From Patescibacteria group bacterium (GTDB taxonomy: Bacteria; Patescibacteriota; JAUYIX01; JBHPHK01), in the NCBI GenBank assembly GCA_042569365.1, contig JBHPHK010000006.1, positions 1 to 50,030 of the forward strand: a DNA stretch of 50,030 nt. The letters are read 5' to 3'. Numbering within the stretch: the stretch's first letter is position 1; each line of letters starts with the position of its first letter. The notes under the pieces are model-generated. The model saw only the letters and a list, made by a program, of their open reading frames with translations, searched no databases and was not told the origin of the DNA. A program made the translations under genes and the position numbers. Positions 6,731-16,127 of the stretch are shown in pieces.

Positions 6731-7539
6731 AAATACTCCTGATCATGACGGCACTTGCTGCAGGTGGCGCGGTACTGCTTTATTTGGCGCGGACTAATCA
6801 CATGGCGTATCTAAACTTTTGTGATGTAGGCCAGGGTGATGCGATTCATATCCGGATACCGCCAGATAAAGATTTCATAGTCGATACTGGTCCTGACCAA
6901 AGTGTCGTTAAGTGTCTCAGTAAAACTATGCCGCTCTGGGATCGCACGGTCGAGCATCTAGCAATAACGCATTTTGATGCTGACCATAGTGAGGGAGTCA
7001 AAACGATCATGCAGCGTTATGATGTAAAAAATTTTTATGCCTCCCAGGAAATTCCAGAAGCGATACAAAGAATCCTAAAGCCTGATACTAAAATAATAGA
7101 CTGGCGTGCCGGCCAAAAATTAATCATTGACCAGCTCGAACTAACCGCGCAGTGGCCGCCGGCAGATTATGAAAACGAAGACGTTAATGCAGCGAGCCTG
7201 GTTTTACAGGGTAGATATGGTGGACACTCTTTCTTGCTGACTGGCGATCTGGCGATTGAGCAGGAAGAAATGATGATCGCAAGTCATTCACTCTGGCCGG
7301 CCGACATTCTCAAAGTCGGGCATCACGGCAGCAAGTCTTCGACAGGCGAAAATTTGCTCACGGCTCTCCGACCAGAAATCGCAATCATTTCAGTCGGCGA
7401 GAAAAACCGCTACGGCCATCCGGCTGAAGAGGCTTTAGAAAGACTGGAAAGTATCCGCGTCTTAAGGACCGATCTGGACGGAACGATTCAGTGCGATCTC
7501 AATGCTTCAGAGCTCTCCTGTTATCCGCTTGCTAATTAG
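6715..7539 (+). CDS. ComEC-type metallo-beta-lactamase-fold nuclease encoded as a separate protein
   Basis: DVGQGD, THFDADH, LLTGD, KVGHHGS, NRYGHP; N-terminal TM anchor; overlaps the comEC stop. Confidence 0.92.
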   Translation: MSRFLKILLIMTALAAGGAVLLYLARTNHMAYLNFCDVGQGDAIHIRIPPDKDFIVDTGPDQSVVKCLSKTMPLWDRTVEHLAITHFDADHSEGVKTIMQRYDVKNFYASQEIPEAIQRILKPDTKIIDWRAGQKLIIDQLELTAQWPPADYENEDVNAASLVLQGRYGGHSFLLTGDLAIEQEEMMIASHSLWPADILKVGHHGSKSSTGENLLTALRPEIAIISVGEKNRYGHPAEEALERLESIRVLRTDLDGTIQCDLNASELSCYPLAN

Positions 7540-7633: not shown

Positions 7634-8113
7634 ATGGAACAAGAACGAACAGTTTTACTTATGAAGCCTGACGGCGTGCGCCGCGGTTTGATCGGCAATG
7701 TCTTGACGCGCCTTGAAAACAAGGGCTTGAAAGTCATTGGCCTTAAGATGATGACGGTCGAAGATGCTTTAGTACAGGAGCACTATGGTCATCATGCTGA
7801 TAAGCCATTTTTCAAAACACTAAAGGCTTATATCCAGAGCGCACCGATCGTGGCGGTATGTATTGAAGGCATTGAAGCCGTGAAAGTTGTTCGCGCATTA
7901 GCGGGGGATACCAGTGGTCGCAAAGCTGATATCGGTACTATTCGCGGAGATCTTTGTATGAGCGTTCAGACAAATATCGTGCACTCTTCCGGAAATCCTG
8001 AAGAGGCCGAGGTAGAGATTAAGCGATTTTTTAAAGATGACGAGCTCTTCGACTACAGCAAAGGTAACGAAAACTTGATTTACGCAGAGGACGAGAAGGA
8101 TTATCGGGATTAA
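7634..8113 (+). CDS. ndk: Nucleoside diphosphate kinase
   Basis: ERTVLLMKPDGV, GTIRGD, catalytic His in NIVHSS. Confidence 0.95.
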   Translation: MEQERTVLLMKPDGVRRGLIGNVLTRLENKGLKVIGLKMMTVEDALVQEHYGHHADKPFFKTLKAYIQSAPIVAVCIEGIEAVKVVRALAGDTSGRKADIGTIRGDLCMSVQTNIVHSSGNPEEAEVEIKRFFKDDELFDYSKGNENLIYAEDEKDYRD

Positions 8114-8125
8114 TAATTTTGACAG

Positions 8126-8175
8126 ACAAAAGAAAAAACCTCGCTTGATCAGGATTGATCAGAGCGAGGTTTTTT
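8126..8175. terminator. Bidirectional terminator between ndk and cassette A
   Basis: A-run, CCTCGCT..TGATCA..TGATCA..AGCGAGG, T-run. Confidence 0.75.
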
Positions 8176-8191
8176 GATGGTTTAAAAGAAG

Positions 8192-8662
8192 TTATTCCGG
8201 TGGTGCCTTTGTGTCGTTGAGCATTTCCCGGATTTCGGTCCACGTGCAGGGGCTGAACATGTTGATCGCGTCCTTCACAGTGTCGGAATCGTTCCCGAAA
8301 ATTGTTAGTGATTTGTTGATTTCCAGCGCAGAACTTGGCCAGTGCAATTTAGCGCGCCAAAGATCAGAGCCAGCTACCATAGTTATATCCGGCGTCAGGT
8401 AAACTATTCCGTCAAAAGCGCCGTAGCTCTCAAAGGTCAGGTGGCCGGAAGGTTTTCGCGTAATGATATCGACATATTCTCTTGAATGATTACGCGACAC
8501 TGAAGGTTCTGCCACAATGGTCCCGAGGTATTCTGGAAACTGGATGGCAGTAGCCGTGCTGGTATCGTCAGCTTCTTTGCTGCTGCAAGCCAAGCTTAGG
8601 CACAGCGCAACGGCAACGATCACAATGATCACAAAGAAGGGAGCATGCTTTCTTATGTTCAT
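8192..8662 (-). CDS. Orphan putative lipoprotein (cassette A)
   Basis: AGGAGG SD upstream of the ATG; signal peptide ending in an LSLAC lipobox-like motif; paralogous to 8828-9343. Confidence 0.8.
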   Translation of the reverse strand: MNIRKHAPFFVIIVIVAVALCLSLACSSKEADDTSTATAIQFPEYLGTIVAEPSVSRNHSREYVDIITRKPSGHLTFESYGAFDGIVYLTPDITMVAGSDLWRAKLHWPSSALEINKSLTIFGNDSDTVKDAINMFSPCTWTEIREMLNDTKAPPE

Positions 8663-8729
8663 GAGACACCTCCTGTCTCTTTTTAAGGTTCGATTTACCG
8701 TCCTTTAAAGACTTTCAGAACGAGGGTTT

Positions 8730-8758
8730 AGGATAGCGTAAAGTAGGCTTACTGTCAA
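8730..8758 (-). promoter_or_regulatory. sigma70 promoter of cassette A
   Basis: TTGACA-17 bp-TATCCT on the minus strand. Confidence 0.7.
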
Positions 8759-8771
8759 GTCACTCTGCTGT

Positions 8772-8809
8772 ACAAAAGAAAAAGCCCCACTCATGCGAGC
8801 GGGGCTTTT
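8772..8809 (-). terminator. Terminator of cassette B
   Basis: GCCCCGCTC-GCAT-GAGTGGGGC then TTTTTCTTTTGT (minus strand). Confidence 0.75.
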
Positions 8810-8827
8810 GAATTTTCATAGGTTTTG

Positions 8828-9343
8828 TCACGGTGACGCGCCATCGAGCAGTCTTCGCACTTCGTCCCAGGGCAGGCAGAGCAGCTCGTTTACTTTTTCA
8901 TTAACGCTTGTGCGACTGGCGCCGATGATAGTAAGGTCTGTGTTGGCGTGCCGTTCAACGTTCGTATACCACTGAAGACGTGCGCGCCAGATCGGAGAAC
9001 CAATTGCAAATTCAGCATTCGACGCAACACAAAGAGTTGACAGATTCGAGATGGGGTAGCTCTCGATTTCCACTTTCCCTGTTGATGTTTGAAAGCAAAG
9101 CAAGAGCTCATTTTCACTTTCGGCTACCGGCGCTGCCAGAAGGGTTCCTGCATATTCCGTGAAGACAAGTATTGTTGCGTTCGGCGGAGATGATGGTTGC
9201 AGTATTGCAACTTCCCCAGCTTCGGTGAGGGGCGCTGCTTCGACTGGATGTGCTGTAAGAATGTCCACTCCTGGGAAAATCAAGCAAATCACCAATACCA
9301 AGAAAATGAAACATCCAATTATGAATTTTGGATTTTTAAACAC
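8828..9343 (-). CDS. Orphan N-terminally anchored or secreted protein (cassette B)
   Basis: AAGGAGGT SD before the GTG; hydrophobic N-terminus; shares EYxGT, ESY, GSxxWRAxLxW, LTIxG and WxExRxxL with cassette A. Confidence 0.8.
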   Translation of the reverse strand: MFKNPKFIIGCFIFLVLVICLIFPGVDILTAHPVEAAPLTEAGEVAILQPSSPPNATILVFTEYAGTLLAAPVAESENELLLCFQTSTGKVEIESYPISNLSTLCVASNAEFAIGSPIWRARLQWYTNVERHANTDLTIIGASRTSVNEKVNELLCLPWDEVRRLLDGASP

Positions 9344-9407
9344 GAAAGACCTCCTTGTATGTCTGTTTTTGATAAAGTTCGAACTGCTCTGAATTGAACA
9401 GTACGCT

Positions 9408-9437
9408 ATTCTAACACTATGGCGCTGTTCTCGTCAA
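9408..9437 (-). promoter_or_regulatory. sigma70 promoter of cassette B
   Basis: TTGACG-18 bp-TAGAAT with a TGn extended -10 (minus strand). Confidence 0.65.
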
Positions 9438-9656
9438 CCCTACAACGCAAAAGAAAAATCCCCGCCACAATGAAGTAGCGGGGGTTTGATCAGATAGGTT
9501 AAGAGGAGTTTCTCTTTGAGTGTCTTCTATTGCTTCGGGACTGAGACCTTTGAACGTGTCGGAGCGAAGAACTATAGAAGCAATAACAAACGATAAAGCC
9601 AGAACGATGACAAATAAAAATGCCAGATTAAGAATTCGTTTACTGAGCAATATCAT
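9417..9656 (-). CDS. Small single-TM orphan (cassette C), possibly truncated
   Basis: AAAGGAGGT SD and TM helix LAFLFVIVLALSFVIASIVL; the frame runs through its own terminator (9448-9487) before stopping. Confidence 0.55.
   Translation of the reverse strand: MILLSKRILNLAFLFVIVLALSFVIASIVLRSDTFKGLSPEAIEDTQRETPLNLSDQTPATSLWRGFFFCVVGLTRTAP
9448..9487 (-). terminator. Terminator of cassette C
   Basis: CCCCGCTAC-TTCATT-GTGGCGGGG then ATTTTTCTTTTG (minus strand). Confidence 0.75.
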
Positions 9657-9741
9657 TGACAGACCTCCTTTTTGTTGGTCGTATGTCGTTTATAAGTACA
9701 ACGCAAATAATGCGCTGCTGGTTTTTAAGTAACAAAATGTT

Positions 9742-9770
9742 AGCTTAACATAAACTGTACTTCTAGTAAA
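9742..9770 (-). promoter_or_regulatory. sigma70 promoter of cassette C
   Basis: TTTACT-17 bp-TAAGCT with a TGn extension (minus strand). Confidence 0.55.
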
Positions 9771-9777
9771 GAGTAAA

Positions 9778-9814
9778 ACAAGAAAATCCCCGCTATGGTA
9801 AGGTAGCGGGGATT
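9778..9814 (-). terminator. Terminator of cassette D (contains the ORF stop codon)
   Basis: AATCCCCGCTA-CCTTACCA-TAGCGGGGATT then TTCTTGTTTT (minus strand). Confidence 0.75.
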
Positions 9815-10383
9815 GGGGTTTCGAAATTGGTCTGTTGTGCGGCGGGTGTCTGCGGCGCATCTTCGTAGAAAAGTTCCGCGTGGCCTTGGCGGACGAACTC
9901 ATAGAACTTCTGGTCGGCGTCGGTGCAGGCGAGCTCTTCCATTTTCGCAAGGGCGATTTTGCGCAGGCGATGTTCAGTAGTGGCACTGAAGATGCGGTAG
10001 GCTTCTTCGGTAGTGGTCACTTGATCCAGTGCTTTCGAAAAGGCGCGCCAGTGGATGTCCGTCATATCGCCGGGGGAATGGCGCAGAGCGCTCGTGGTAA
10101 TGACAGAGAGACATTCTTCGAAGGTCTCTGCCTTTTCCAGCAGCTGCATTTCCACTTCGAACTGGGACTTTTTCGACCAGTCGACACTGTCGAGGTACGT
10201 AGCGTGAGCGTAGAGGAATTCGGCGTGGCATGCGGTTTCTTCGATTTGGCTTTGTCTTAACTTCCCGTCTCTCAATGTGGTGTAAGTAAGAGTCACAAAA
10301 AAGATTAAGAAGATGATCAGCAAAAAAGCCACAGCGGGCCAGCAAATGCCTTTCGACTTTGACGAGTGCGGTGTATCTGGCAT
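9793..10383 (-). CDS. Orphan single-TM helical protein (cassette D); start revised to ATG 10383
   Basis: AAAGGAGGT SD precedes MPDTPH; TM segment VAFLLIIFLIFFVTLTY. Confidence 0.75.
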   Translation of the reverse strand: MPDTPHSSKSKGICWPAVAFLLIIFLIFFVTLTYTTLRDGKLRQSQIEETACHAEFLYAHATYLDSVDWSKKSQFEVEMQLLEKAETFEECLSVITTSALRHSPGDMTDIHWRAFSKALDQVTTTEEAYRIFSATTEHRLRKIALAKMEELACTDADQKFYEFVRQGHAELFYEDAPQTPAAQQTNFETPIPATLP

Positions 10384-10458
10384 AACCAACCTCCTTTCGC
10401 GCAATTTGCGCAACGTGGTTATTGTTTCGTTTTCGTTGTTTTTAAGGAACAACACATT

Positions 10459-10487
10459 AACCTAACATATCCCGTGCTGTTTGTCAA
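10459..10487 (-). promoter_or_regulatory. sigma70 promoter of cassette D
   Basis: TTGACA-17 bp-TAGGTT with a TGn extension (minus strand). Confidence 0.65.
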
Positions 10488-10566
10488 CGTGTTTAGAGTT
10501 AATCTAGCAGCACGCTTAACAAGCGTTTCAGCGGTTTTAATTGACGCAAAAAGTAGGGTTTTTCCT

Positions 10567-10596
10567 TTGACAAAACATCAAAAAATAACCTATAAT
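10567..10596 (+). promoter_or_regulatory. Consensus sigma70 promoter driving the ncRNA
   Basis: TTGACA-18 bp-TATAAT with no credible ORF downstream. Confidence 0.8.
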
Positions 10597-10600
10597 TAAA

Positions 10601-10757
10601 AAGGCTTCGGACGTATATGGTAGTAGAAACGGAACTTGCCGATCAATGTCCAATATTGGGAGCTCAATATCTTTAGTGCCCGTGGGCACTAAGTGCGAAC
10701 ACCCATAATGCCTAGAATCTGGACAAAGTTCCACTGCCCTAAACGCCCCGAGGCCTT
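10601..10757 (+). ncRNA. Rod-shaped ncRNA, probably 6S RNA (SsrS-like)
   Basis: Nested pairings AAGGCTTCGG/CCGAGGCCTT, GGTAGT/ACTGCC, GGAACTT/AAGTTCC, TGTCCA/TGGACA, TGGG/CCCA, and apical TTAGTGCC-CGTG-GGCACTAA; starts just after a consensus promoter. Confidence 0.65.
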
Positions 10758-10804
10758 AAGGTATCTAACTTTTTCAAGAACAGATATCTATTATTTAGAC
10801 AAAC

Positions 10805-10839
10805 AAAAAACGCCATCTTTCGTAGAGAGGCGCTTTTTT
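10805..10839. terminator. Bidirectional terminator between the ncRNA and rpmB
   Basis: AAAAAA-CGCC..TCT..AGA..GGCG-CTTTTTT. Confidence 0.6.
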
Positions 10840-10855
10840 ATAATATCTAGGATAT

Positions 10856-11062
10856 TTAGAGTTTCGCGGCGAGACTCTGTTTGAAAGAGTCTTTATTGTT
10901 AATAGACTTGATGCACTTGGTGCAAGCACGAATACGTTGGTCGCCAACATTAATCCACTGCACGTTTGCGTGCTGTTTCTTCTTAGTTGCGATGTTGGAG
11001 TGGCTTCGCAAGTTCTTCATATTGTATGTGCGTTCGCAAACGCTACAGTTACTTAAGGACAT
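10856..11062 (-). CDS. rpmB: 50S ribosomal protein L28 (Zn-ribbon type)
   Basis: CSVC...RSHSNIATKKKQHANVQ...CTKCIKS; TTGACA-17-TATTCT promoter near 11112-11140 on the minus strand. Confidence 0.88.
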   Translation of the reverse strand: MSLSNCSVCERTYNMKNLRSHSNIATKKKQHANVQWINVGDQRIRACTKCIKSINNKDSFKQSLAAKL

Positions 11063-11166
11063 AATATTTTTATCAAATGTGTGATAAGATGCTAATTAGC
11101 ATGTACACTTGAGAATATCGAACATCTTTGTTATTGTCAAGTCTCTTAATCTAAATTATCAAAATC

Positions 11167-11799
11167 GTGCTTGTATCTCTTCTTTTCAGCGATCCCTTAA
11201 CTTTTTTTGCCTATCTTATGGCTCTCGTCGTGGGAATAACATTCCACGAATTTGCACATGCTTGGTCGGCGCGCATGTTAGGTGACCCCACAGCAGAACA
11301 GGCTGGCCGTCTGACCCTAAACCCTTTCAAACACCTAGATCTAGTGGGTACGCTCTTCTTGCTCTTCGCCGGTTTTGGCTGGGGTAAGCCCGTCCCGGTC
11401 AATCATCTAAACTTACGCAACGGGAAATGGGGCCGCCTCATGGTCTCCCTCTCAGGGCCCATCTCAAACCTGATTTTAATCTTCGTTTTTGGTATTGCCC
11501 TGCGCTTAGTCTTTGCCTTCACGGCACTGCCGCAGACCAACGGCCTGATTATTTTCTTGCTGGCACTGATTATCATCAATATCATCCTGATGATTTTCAA
11601 TCTGATCCCGGTTCCGCCACTCGATGGGGGAGAGCTGCTTGAGTTTTTCTTGCCGGAGCGCGCGCACCGCATCAAAGAGTTTATCCAGCGGTATGGTTTC
11701 TTCATTCTCTTCTTCTTGCTGATTATCGGATATCGCGTACTTCAGCCTATCTTTGAGAGCGTAATCAACTTCACATTGCGGTACTTAGTGGGGGCGTAG
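11167..11799 (+). CDS. Site-2 protease (peptidase M50 family)
   Basis: HEFAH zinc motif, [23 protein letters not shown]. Confidence 0.93.
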
Positions 11800-11914: not shown

Positions 11915-12421
11915 ATGCCCACAATAAACCAATTAATCAAAAAGCCACGCAAAACAAAGTCGAAGAAATCAAAATCTCCGGCTATGCAGCGTAACTATAA
12001 TGCGATCAAGAATCGCTCTGTAGACCTTAAAAAAGGTAGTCCTTTTAAACGAGGAGTTTGCGTGAAAGTGGGTACGATGACACCTAAAAAGCCGAACTCA
12101 GCACTTCGCAAGTTTGCCCGTGTTCGTCTTACGAACCGTATGGAAGTAACCGCTTATATCCCTGGCGAGGGCCATAATTTGCAGGAACACTCCGTGGTAT
12201 TGCTGCGTGGTGGTCGTGTGAAGGATTTGCCGGGTGTGCGTTATCACGTTGTCCGCGGACACCTTGATACAGGTGGCGTTGAAGGACGCCAGCGCGGTCG
12301 CAGTAAATATGGCACAAAACAGGGTGGTAAAGTTGGTGTTGCAGCAGTAGCTGGAGCAGAAGATGCTGGAGATGCAGGAGACACTGGAGATGCAGGTGGA
12401 GACGCACCAGCAGCAGAATAA
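11915..12421 (+). CDS. rpsL: 30S ribosomal protein S12 with acidic C-terminal tail
   Basis: [35 protein letters not shown]. Confidence 0.98.
12362..12397 (+). repeat. Four degenerate 9-nt repeats encoding DAG/DTG in the rpsL tail
   Basis: GATGCTGGA GATGCAGGA GACACTGGA GATGCAGGT. Confidence 0.8.
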
Positions 12422-15230: not shown

Positions 15231-16127
15231 ATGACAACCGAAGTGCAAACTATTGCGCAAAAACTCATTGCGGCACTGTCTAAGATTTCAGCTACCTTGA
15301 CTTTGGATTGTCATAAGATTATCCAAGGCATTGAAGTAAATCTCAGGCTTCAGTCGCCAATTCTTGTTGACGCTGTTGATGCGTTTGACAAGAATAAGTG
15401 GAGACGGGACCATATCTTGATCCGTGATCGCTTCAGTCATCGACTCGAAGACGCTTATGAATTCGGTGTTAAAGAACAAGAATACCGAAAACATGAGGCG
15501 GTCCGAGTGAGTCTGTCTTTTAAGGAAACGTTGATCTCCGAAGGCTACGATTCAATCTTTCTGTTTTATGACAAAAAGACGGGAGAGTTTCTGGGCGGAT
15601 TGCTTCAGTCTTTTGAGCGAGACAAGCTCATTTCAGCGGTTGAATATCACTGCGATGTTCATAGTCCTCGCAAAATTGTCTGGGCGATGACCAGAGAACT
15701 GCGGTATCCATTGGTCAAGTACCATTCGGCACCGACAATTGATCCGCGCATCAACGAGATCATCGAAGAACAAGGACAGATTTTGATCGATGAGAAAGAC
15801 AAAGACACGGGCCATCTATGGAAGAAAACTATGTACTTGCGGCCAGCAGACGAAGGCAGCAAGCATCGCCGGCTCTACGAAGACGGACTGTTTCTGACAG
15901 GCAAACCCTCGACTGGTGTTGATAAGGGCGCCAAGTGGTTCAAGATCATCGAATGGCAGGACGGCAAAAAACATTTTATCATCCACGAAAGAGATGGAGG
16001 CCAGAAAAAGGGAGTGAAATGGTCTGAGAAAAACGGACTACTGCCTGACATGAGACTGAAACTTCAGCGCATGTTTAACATCAGAGTCTCTAAGGGCTTG
16101 TTTCCAAAGGAACTCAAGATCAAATAG
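15231..16127 (+). CDS. Orphan soluble protein (298 aa) between fusA and tuf
   Basis: Perfect TAAGGAGGTGA SD before ATG 15231 (start revised from 15222); no motif recognised. Confidence 0.8.
   Translation: MTTEVQTIAQKLIAALSKISATLTLDCHKIIQGIEVNLRLQSPILVDAVDAFDKNKWRRDHILIRDRFSHRLEDAYEFGVKEQEYRKHEAVRVSLSFKETLISEGYDSIFLFYDKKTGEFLGGLLQSFERDKLISAVEYHCDVHSPRKIVWAMTRELRYPLVKYHSAPTIDPRINEIIEEQGQILIDEKDKDTGHLWKKTMYLRPADEGSKHRRLYEDGLFLTGKPSTGVDKGAKWFKIIEWQDGKKHFIIHERDGGQKKGVKWSEKNGLLPDMRLKLQRMFNIRVSKGLFPKELKIK

Follow-up and report, generated by a model that had tools for sequence, protein, structure and literature searches.

Four self-contained orphan gene units between ndk and rpmB in a Patescibacteria genome, a probable lineage-specific accessory cluster

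The stretch of DNA studied here, called the window, comprises 50,030 nucleotides (positions 1 to 50,030 of contig JBHPHK010000006.1, C6 below) of a Patescibacteria group bacterium (assembly GCA_042569365.1, our genome G000), and our subject is an array of four gene units, U1–U4, at positions 8126–10487. The assembly has 724,943 bases in 21 contigs and is 87% complete, and among the species representatives searched no other genome belongs to the family of the source genome. Almost all genes in the window are on the plus strand. The exception is a minus-strand block between ndk and the gene of an M50 peptidase (11167–11799), in which rpmB, a structured RNA-like element, and the four units are found. 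U1–U4 themselves are all on the minus strand and lie between ndk on one side and the structured RNA plus rpmB on the other.

The initial annotation of this DNA had described four tandem cassettes, each made up of promoter, leader, Shine-Dalgarno (SD) sequence, open reading frame (ORF), and terminator, and every one of these parts can be read on the minus strand for U1–U4. The −35 boxes are, in order from U1 to U4, TTGACA, TTTACT, TTGACG, and TTGACA, with spacers of 17–18 nt, and the −10 boxes have the form TAnnnT, preceded by TG in U1–U3 and not in U4. The leaders measure ~69, 79, 58, and 61 nt if transcription is taken to start 7 nt past the −10 box, and an SD of the (A)AGGAGGT or AAGGAGGT type lies 6–7 nt ahead of each start codon. 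All four ORFs have a hydrophobic N-terminal stretch, and U4 has a lipobox, in keeping with the N-terminal transmembrane (TM) segment or lipobox that had been proposed. Likewise, a GC-rich hairpin with a T-tract stands 10–25 nt before the next −35 box, and the plus-strand core genes start in AT-rich sequence without an SD, both as first described; elsewhere in the window an AAGGAGG start occurs once, at 15231. The 3′ hairpins of U1–U4, which have GC stems of 22–31 nt with the T-tract directly after, are ordinary terminators. A pattern scan picked up the promoters of U3 and U4 and the terminators of U1–U3, and a separate hairpin scan added the U4 terminator. Between positions 7000 and 12000, the pattern scan found 18 promoter-like sites compared to 6.4 ± 2.3 in shuffles, and 11 terminator-like sites compared to 4.9 ± 2.8. 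The leaders fold with z-scores of −0.45 to −2.0 and therefore give no sign of riboswitch-like structure. A repeat search found no long inverted repeats, and no tandem repeat beyond 21 nt (2.3 copies of a 9-nt unit), and the array thus shows nothing that would suggest a switch. GC content across the array is 0.395–0.555, against 0.444 for the contig, and stays within the range of the flanks, while GC content at third codon positions (GC3) ranges from 0.35 to 0.63 in the four ORFs, with a genome mean of 0.44. Searches of Pfam, NCBIfam, PHROGs, and PADLOC with U1–U4 returned nothing significant, and tblastn against the genome itself found no further paralogs.

The promoter and leader of U1 (10384–10487, minus strand) consist of TTGACA (10487–10482), a 17-nt spacer, TGtTAGGTT ending at 10459, and a leader of ~69 nt (fold z-score −0.47) with the SD AAAGGAGGT at 10397–10389. 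The ORF (9793–10383, minus strand; ATG at 10383) encodes 196 amino acids (aa), and its AlphaFold2 model (predicted local distance difference test score, pLDDT, 74.3; predicted template modelling score 0.59) begins with a TM helix at the N-terminus and continues as an all-helical, repeat-like domain. Structure matches to this model were generic helical-repeat resemblances only: Foldseek against the PDB found nothing at E up to 0.001, its highest-ranked entries were designed helical repeats with template modelling scores of at most 0.43, and a comparison with a protein atlas gave no usable feature match, with scores of at most 0.47. A word-indexed search of 5.8 billion proteins returned U1 itself and one homolog, P0006, at 49% identity, which comes from a single contig of 3,251 nt. 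The U1 terminator (9775–9814, minus strand; stem 9814–9785, TCCCCGCTACCTTACCATAGCGGGGA then TTTTCTTGTTTT; −15.6 kcal/mol) holds the stop codon TAG of U1 in its loop.

U2 has a promoter and leader (9657–9770, minus strand) with TTTACT (9770–9765), a 17-nt spacer, TGtTAAGCT ending at 9742, a leader of ~79 nt, and the SD AAGGAGGT at 9670–9663. Its frame (9417–9656, minus strand; ATG at 9656) has 79 codons, with a TM helix and a short tail, and crosses its own terminator (9449–9483, minus strand; stem 9483–9460, CCCCGCTACTTCATTGTGGCGGGG then ATTTTTCTTTT; −18.8 kcal/mol), so that a transcript ended at the T-tract would carry no stop codon. The stop TAG (9419–9417) lies within the promoter spacer of U3, between −35 and −10. 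Where U1 has its TAG, the homologous position of U2 reads TTG TGG, and the last codons are alike and in frame in U1 (PIPATLP*), U2 (TPATSLW), and P0006 (IPPTLW). The description of U2 as an orphan ORF holds for the frame and its signals, yet its status as a gene is doubtful, as there is no stop before the terminator and no protein self-match: in the same 5.8 billion proteins U2 found nothing, not even itself. What links the two units is their outer parts. The start of the promoter-leader region is identical at 26/32 positions and at the same offset from the −35 box, and the gene tail with the terminator is identical in 28/36 columns (78%), scores that 0/500 shuffles reached in either case. An independent repeat search returned both, as a 50-nt repeat of 72% identity (D1, 36/50) and a 32-nt repeat of 78% (D3), in the same register. 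The promoter-leaders and terminators of U1 and U2 are homologous, and U2 is probably a decayed, internally deleted copy of a U1-type unit.

The promoter of U3 (promoter and leader 9344–9437, minus strand) has TTGACG at 9437–9432, an 18-nt spacer, and TGtTAGAAT ending at 9408, and is followed by a leader of ~58 nt with the SD AAGGAGGT at 9356–9349. The ORF (8828–9343, minus strand; GTG at 9343) encodes 171 aa with an N-terminal signal or anchor helix. In the 5.8 billion proteins U3 found only itself, called there as 154 aa; the public call starts 17 codons downstream and loses most of the signal or anchor helix. A start at GTG 9343 is more likely, since AAGGAGGT stands 6 nt ahead of it. An AlphaFold2 model of U3 shows an anchor helix, a low-confidence linker, a beta-rich domain, and two C-terminal helices, a topology that is indicative only at a pLDDT of 48.5, which also makes the model unusable for a structure search. 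The U3 terminator (8770–8809, minus strand) has its stem at 8809–8780, with GCCCCGCTCGCATGAGTGGGGC then TTTTTCTTTTG, 13 pairs of which 7 are GC, and −17.6 kcal/mol.

U4 follows with a promoter (promoter and leader 8663–8758, minus strand) that matches at 10/12 positions, made of TTGACA (8758–8753), a 17-nt spacer, and TATCCT ending at 8730, and with a leader of ~61 nt (fold z-score −1.13) that bears the SD AGGAGGT at 8674–8668. A hairpin with a perfect 6-bp stem (GAGACA/TGTCTC, 8663–8679) holds the GGAGG of this SD in its loop and ends at the start codon. The ORF (8192–8662, minus strand; ATG at 8662) encodes a predicted lipoprotein of 156 aa, whose signal peptide begins MNIRKH, continues with a hydrophobic core, and ends at an LSLA-C26 lipobox, after which comes a Ser/Thr/Asp-rich linker. 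The genome encodes both LspA (E 4.9e-32) and Lgt (E 2.2e-77), and lipidation of U4 is predicted from the lipobox with its cysteine together with these two enzymes. The terminator at its end (8126–8172, both strands) is a 31-nt stem-loop (8169–8139) with T-runs to either side and −17.8 kcal/mol on each strand; it is bidirectional and also serves the convergent ndk. At the protein level U3 and U4 share 28% identity over 115 aa (E 8e-13) and are paralogs, each with a putative beta-rich domain. An exhaustive profile search with U3 and U4 returned only both queries and a weak match to an RTX protein, with E 1.7e-4 summed over 7 repeats. As a candidate for U3/U4, an RTX or HCBP_related (PF06594) beta domain was rejected, with an hhalign probability of 2% and no Pfam match at E up to 1.

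The format of these units is found throughout the genome. From simple ORF calls we obtained 711 ORF-genes, of which 593 have no SD at all and 101 have a strong SD of the AAGGAGGT type, the latter being an upper bound because our start choice favours an SD; the 3′ end of the 16S rRNA keeps the anti-SD tail CCTCCTTT. Strong-SD genes more often have a strong terminator within 110 nt (35% vs. 3.9%), an upstream promoter-like site (51% vs. 15.5%), and a hydrophobic N-terminus (41% vs. 26%), and their GC3 is 0.49 vs. 0.44; promoter, SD, and terminator occur all together in 24 genes. The extended −10 promoter, TTGACN-N13-15-TGNTANNNT, has 75 sites in the genome, 69 of them outside ORFs and 69 with the 14-nt spacing, and where a called gene lies within 400 nt downstream (56 cases), it is a strong-SD gene in 39. 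Strong-SD genes also occur in runs: there are 8 runs of three or more genes, compared to 1.7 expected (0/2000 shuffles reached this), and 2 runs of four or more, compared to 0.23 expected. The shell of promoter, SD, and terminator is the standard dress for ~100 accessory genes of this genome, and the layout of U1–U4 is not special to the ndk-rpmB locus. The leader motif TCTTAAAA is mildly enriched upstream of strong-SD genes (7/101 vs. 2/610), as is CTTAAAAAC (4/101 vs. 2/610). Other SD-poor genomes with a minority of SD-led genes are known, with translation initiation of the Bacteroidia type. This genome is similar in that core starts lack an SD although the anti-SD is kept, and in that the strong-SD minority is mostly accessory; it differs in that genes with a strong SD also have the rest of a full monocistronic shell (extended −10 promoter, leader, and terminator) and tend to lie together in tandem arrays. 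A literature search on SD usage in Patescibacteria returned no paper on the topic by title, and one on orphan tandem membrane genes in the Candidate Phyla Radiation returned nothing relevant.

We consider that the array is probably a lineage-specific accessory cluster of orphan proteins targeted to the envelope, which would have been built by tandem duplication and divergence. Whole units, from promoter to terminator, would have been duplicated locally, and their coding parts would then have diverged fast or suffered internal deletion. U2, as a remnant of U1, would have kept the start of the promoter-leader and an N-terminal TM helix at one end, and at the other the final 7 codons with the terminator. 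Growth of the array by duplication had been suggested in the initial annotation, and both the U3/U4 paralogs and the modules that U1 and U2 have in common, in the same register, speak for local duplication. Each unit would be expressed as an independent monocistronic gene under the standard accessory module, that is, a sigma-70 promoter, in most units of the extended −10 type, a 5′ untranslated region of 58–79 nt, an SD nearly perfect against the 16S tail, and a strong intrinsic terminator. Among the products, U1 would be a helical-repeat protein anchored by its TM helix, U4 a lipoprotein, and U3 a paralog of U4 with a signal anchor, and all three probably act at the envelope or the host interface. 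Several points weigh against this account. The ORF bodies of U1 and U2 cannot be aligned and have no similarity at the protein level, their GC3 values differ (0.63 and 0.35, respectively), and the derivation of U2 from U1 is supported by ~90 nt of flanks and 7 codons. No common origin can be demonstrated between the U1/U2 pair and the U3/U4 pair. A surface location is based on N-terminal hydrophobic segments and one lipobox, and the topology of U1 is ambiguous. Finally, there is the upper-bound nature of the strong-SD count given above.

Taken alone, the locus is an ordinary set of accessory genes for orphan envelope proteins. The array adds one more data point to the picture of an SD-less operonic core set against ~100 self-contained, often secreted orphan genes in tandem arrays. 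With close strains at hand, such arrays would be suited to measuring the turnover of the surface repertoire in ultra-small host-dependent bacteria, and the role of junction modules in it. The vsp, vlp, and vsa loci of Mycoplasma are likewise tandems of small genes for surface proteins or lipoproteins in a minimal genome. In C6, however, there is one lipobox and the 5′ ends are not conserved across units, and no invertase, inverted repeats, or homopolymer switch of the Mycoplasma type was found at the array.

Other tandem arrays of the same genome, on contigs C7, C11, and C1, show how the signals of such units may stay alike. The C7 array (L101; C7:22690–26960, minus strand) has four monocistronic units of 122, 268, 281, and 312 aa between two tRNA-like genes and rpsP. 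Its proteins have no detectable mutual similarity and no Pfam domain; the terminators (of the GGCGGACGATCATATGATTGTCCGCC type) are 88–97.5% identical over 40–44 nt, and three promoters have TTGACA-N14-TGCTAGGnT in common. It is a far stronger case of one shell with different cargo than the C6 array. The arrays on C11 and C1 are paralog arrays. In C11 (L102; C11:21465–27135, minus strand) there are three paralogous TM proteins with the N-terminus MKxxxKxRAERRR, which are 21–27% identical as proteins, with terminators identical at 22–23/23 nt and SD regions at 90%, a pattern that suggests control signals that are homogenised or strongly constrained. The C1 array (L104; C1:41051–46283) is a tandem of paralogs with three near-identical bidirectional terminators (CCCCGCCTCTCCAAAAAGCGGGG) between the genes, and includes an extracytoplasmic function (ECF) sigma factor fused to a domain common to two adjoining TM proteins. 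Among 16 array proteins tested, none had an above-threshold Pfam domain except this ECF-sigma fusion. The C7, C11, and C1 arrays show that in this genome divergence of the coding parts need not extend to the control signals, and C6 is a weak, old-looking case of this.

How alike the boundaries of the C6 units are was judged against the genome itself, using 113 strong hairpin terminators (6320 pairs) and 38 leaders behind extended −10 promoters (703 pairs). The terminators of U1 and U2 score 13, which is in the top 0.2% and above the 99.9th percentile of distant pairs. The other terminator pairs rank in the top 4% (U2/U3), at 11% (U1/U3 and U1/U4), at 26% (U3/U4), and at 58% (U2/U4). Among the leaders, from which U4 is left out because its −10 box has no TG, U1/U2 is in the top 3.8% and the remaining C6 pairs are at 29% or worse. 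The related terminators of the initial annotation are therefore to be narrowed to U1 and U2, which stand out, whereas the U4 pairs and U1/U3 fall at 11–58% of genome pairs. The same division holds when the question is put as whether the boundaries are more alike than the genome average: for U3 and U4 they are not, and for U1/U2 alone they are. A search of the genome for other copies of the boundary elements had been suggested in the initial annotation, and it turned up no second copy of any junction beyond the generic T-tract tail TTTTTCTTTTG, which also ends terminators on C3, C7, C9, and C11.

The surroundings of the array are conserved. The left anchor is ndk (7634–8113, plus strand; PF00334, E 6.7e-46), and the right anchor is rpmB, which encodes L28 (10856–11062, minus strand; PF00830, 26.8 bits, with a cut-off of 27) and has kept its position in 5/5 relatives. 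These five, four from the same order and one from the same class, have ndk sequences 31–37% identical to the one here, and all keep the order of metallo-beta-lactamase-fold protein, ndk, gap, L28 (on the opposite strand), M50 peptidase, and rpsL. The gap between ndk and L28 is 2742 nt in our genome. It is 304, 273, and 326 nt in three relatives (G001, G004, and G002, respectively), with no convincing ORF, and ~0.7 kb in two others (G005 and G007), with one membrane-protein ORF each (118 and 155 aa) that is co-directional with ndk. As the gaps of these distant relatives span 0.27–0.73 kb, U1–U4 are extra DNA relative to all five, and the ndk-rpmB slot is used independently by other small membrane genes. 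Wider searches gave no relatives of the units. U3 and U1 were found in 0/40 relatives, and 80 metagenomic ndk loci, retained out of 146 (best ndk identity 63%), contained relatives of U1–U4 in 0/80, their gaps between ndk and the M50 gene holding ordinary housekeeping-sized ORFs. An alignment of U1 against the species-representative genomes found none, and the U1 and U3/U4 alignments found no relatives among viral contigs. An rpsL scan of the species representatives drew matches from many phyla, which helped with neither placement nor synteny.

The junctions invite a comparison with the PeSL (promoter-early stem-loop) cassettes of T4-type phages, which Arbiol et al. (2010, PMC2839356) present as cassettes of a sigma-70-like promoter and a stem-loop that mediate modular shuffling. 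The likeness lies in strong promoters paired with terminator stem-loops between small orphan genes of a variable region, and a putative composite of this type, a strong sigma-70-like promoter with a terminator, can be read at all three C6 junctions (J12, J23, and J34); the differences are the phage setting, as opposed to a bacterial chromosome here, and C6 modules that are mostly dissimilar, with U1/U2 the only related ones (72–78%). In such a scheme terminator-promoter junctions would be short substrates of homologous recombination, and single-gene units would be duplicated, deleted, replaced, or circularised as in the hyperplastic regions of those phages, with the C6 array as an old product; we regard this as unlikely. 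Each junction does have a terminator with a strong promoter 10–25 nt on, and U1 and U2 have both junction modules in common while their ORF bodies cannot be aligned. The C7 array, with its highly similar junction repeats, resembles PeSL loci more closely, as its unrelated ORFs have terminator modules 88–97.5% identical and similar promoters, and C11 has diverged paralogs with near-identical terminators. However, the C6 modules are now too diverged to recombine, with longest near-identical stretches of 26/32 and 28/36 nt, and the U1/U2 repeats (72% over 50 nt and 78% over 32 nt) are not highly similar recombining repeats. The junctions of U3 and U4 are no more alike than random genome pairs, no junction has a second copy elsewhere in the genome, and each array has a terminator type of its own, which local duplication or gene conversion fits equally well. 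It is mainly because of the C7 array that we keep a junction role of this kind at a low probability. The broader proposition, that Patescibacteria-type genomes keep accessory surface genes as full modules whose junctions serve as local substrates of recombination or gene conversion, as a chromosomal counterpart of PeSL, is in our view similarly doubtful. If it were true, hot spots such as ndk-rpmB would be places where orphan genes are duplicated, exchanged for others, and lost, and the C6 array would be an aged example and the C7 array a fresh one.

The array may also be compared with systems that bring genes in from elsewhere. The integron-like, site-specific cassette array that the initial annotation had in mind is very improbable. 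An integron has an IntI-type tyrosine recombinase beside its array, most of its cassettes have no promoter and depend on a shared one, and attC sites are imperfect palindromes of roughly 57–141 nt with conserved core sites; clusters without the integrase are recognised by two or more attC sites. Tandem same-strand units of a single gene, each ending in a 3′ hairpin, are what U1–U4 have in common with integrons and with clusters of attC sites lacking an integrase (CALIN), and the resemblance ends with this layout. There is no IntI and no attC architecture, the hairpins fall short of attC size, the repeat search gave no long inverted repeats, and each unit brings a promoter of its own, in a shell that is genome-wide. 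That no integrase was in view is confirmed by a six-frame PF00589 search of the assembly, which gave no match on C6; the sole match to this tyrosine recombinase family is partial and lies at a contig end (C19:7–285). As candidates for attC sites the 3′ elements were rejected, being 22–31-nt GC-rich stem-loops with T-tracts (no attC-specific model was run). A foreign island, whose ready-made promoter-to-terminator units would have entered the ndk-rpmB interval by horizontal transfer (the donor being a phage, a plasmid, or another bacterium), is also unlikely. In its favour, none of the five relatives examined has the extra 2.4 kb, the units carry strong SDs where core genes have none, and GC3 exceeds the genome mean (0.44) in U1 (0.63) and U4 (0.56). 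Phage morons are defined by their own promoter and terminator and deviant GC content (PMC3594210). U1–U4 are like morons as independent transcription units that add DNA between conserved genes under their own promoter and terminator, and unlike them in being flanked by ndk, rpmB, the M50 peptidase gene, and rpsL without prophage context and in using host-type promoters, for which this genome has its TTGACA-N14-TGnTAnnnT form. On GC content there is no clear deviation, with 0.395–0.555 across the array, within the flank range, and GC3 values of 0.35–0.63. The neighbourhood has no genes of mobile elements, and the units have no viral-contig relatives, no PHROG match below E 0.003, and none in PADLOC. 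In the 40 relatives, the 80 metagenome loci, and the species representatives there is no homolog, the sole exception to the lack of homologs being the U1 relative at 49% identity. The C6 array works like moron-style autonomous units and, by the features compared here, belongs to none of the integron, PeSL, and moron families.

To the right of the accessory cluster, outside the array, lies the structured RNA-like element (10567–10790, plus strand), divergent from the U1 promoter. The noncoding RNA of the initial annotation is probably on the plus strand. Its promoter (10567–10596) has TTGACA, an 18-nt spacer, and TATAAT, a 12/12 match, and the element of ~160 nt has a rod-like fold of −62.4 kcal/mol with a z-score of −4.16. 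Its shape suggests a 6S-like RNA. No Rfam family matched the element even at E 10, and Rfam searches of the window at gathering thresholds and of 8000–11300 at E up to 10 gave no credible family. An alignment with the ndk-rpmB gaps of G001, G002, and G004 gave no convincing homology. A search of the window for tRNA and transfer-messenger RNA (tmRNA) genes found none, and in the genome aragorn gave no tmRNA among the matches listed (20 lines for 21 contigs). Further along the contig, ribosomal protein S12 (11915–12421) has an acidic, Gly/Ala/Asp-rich C-terminal extension of ~30 aa, and the tblastn matches of relatives to S12 end near residue 133–136.

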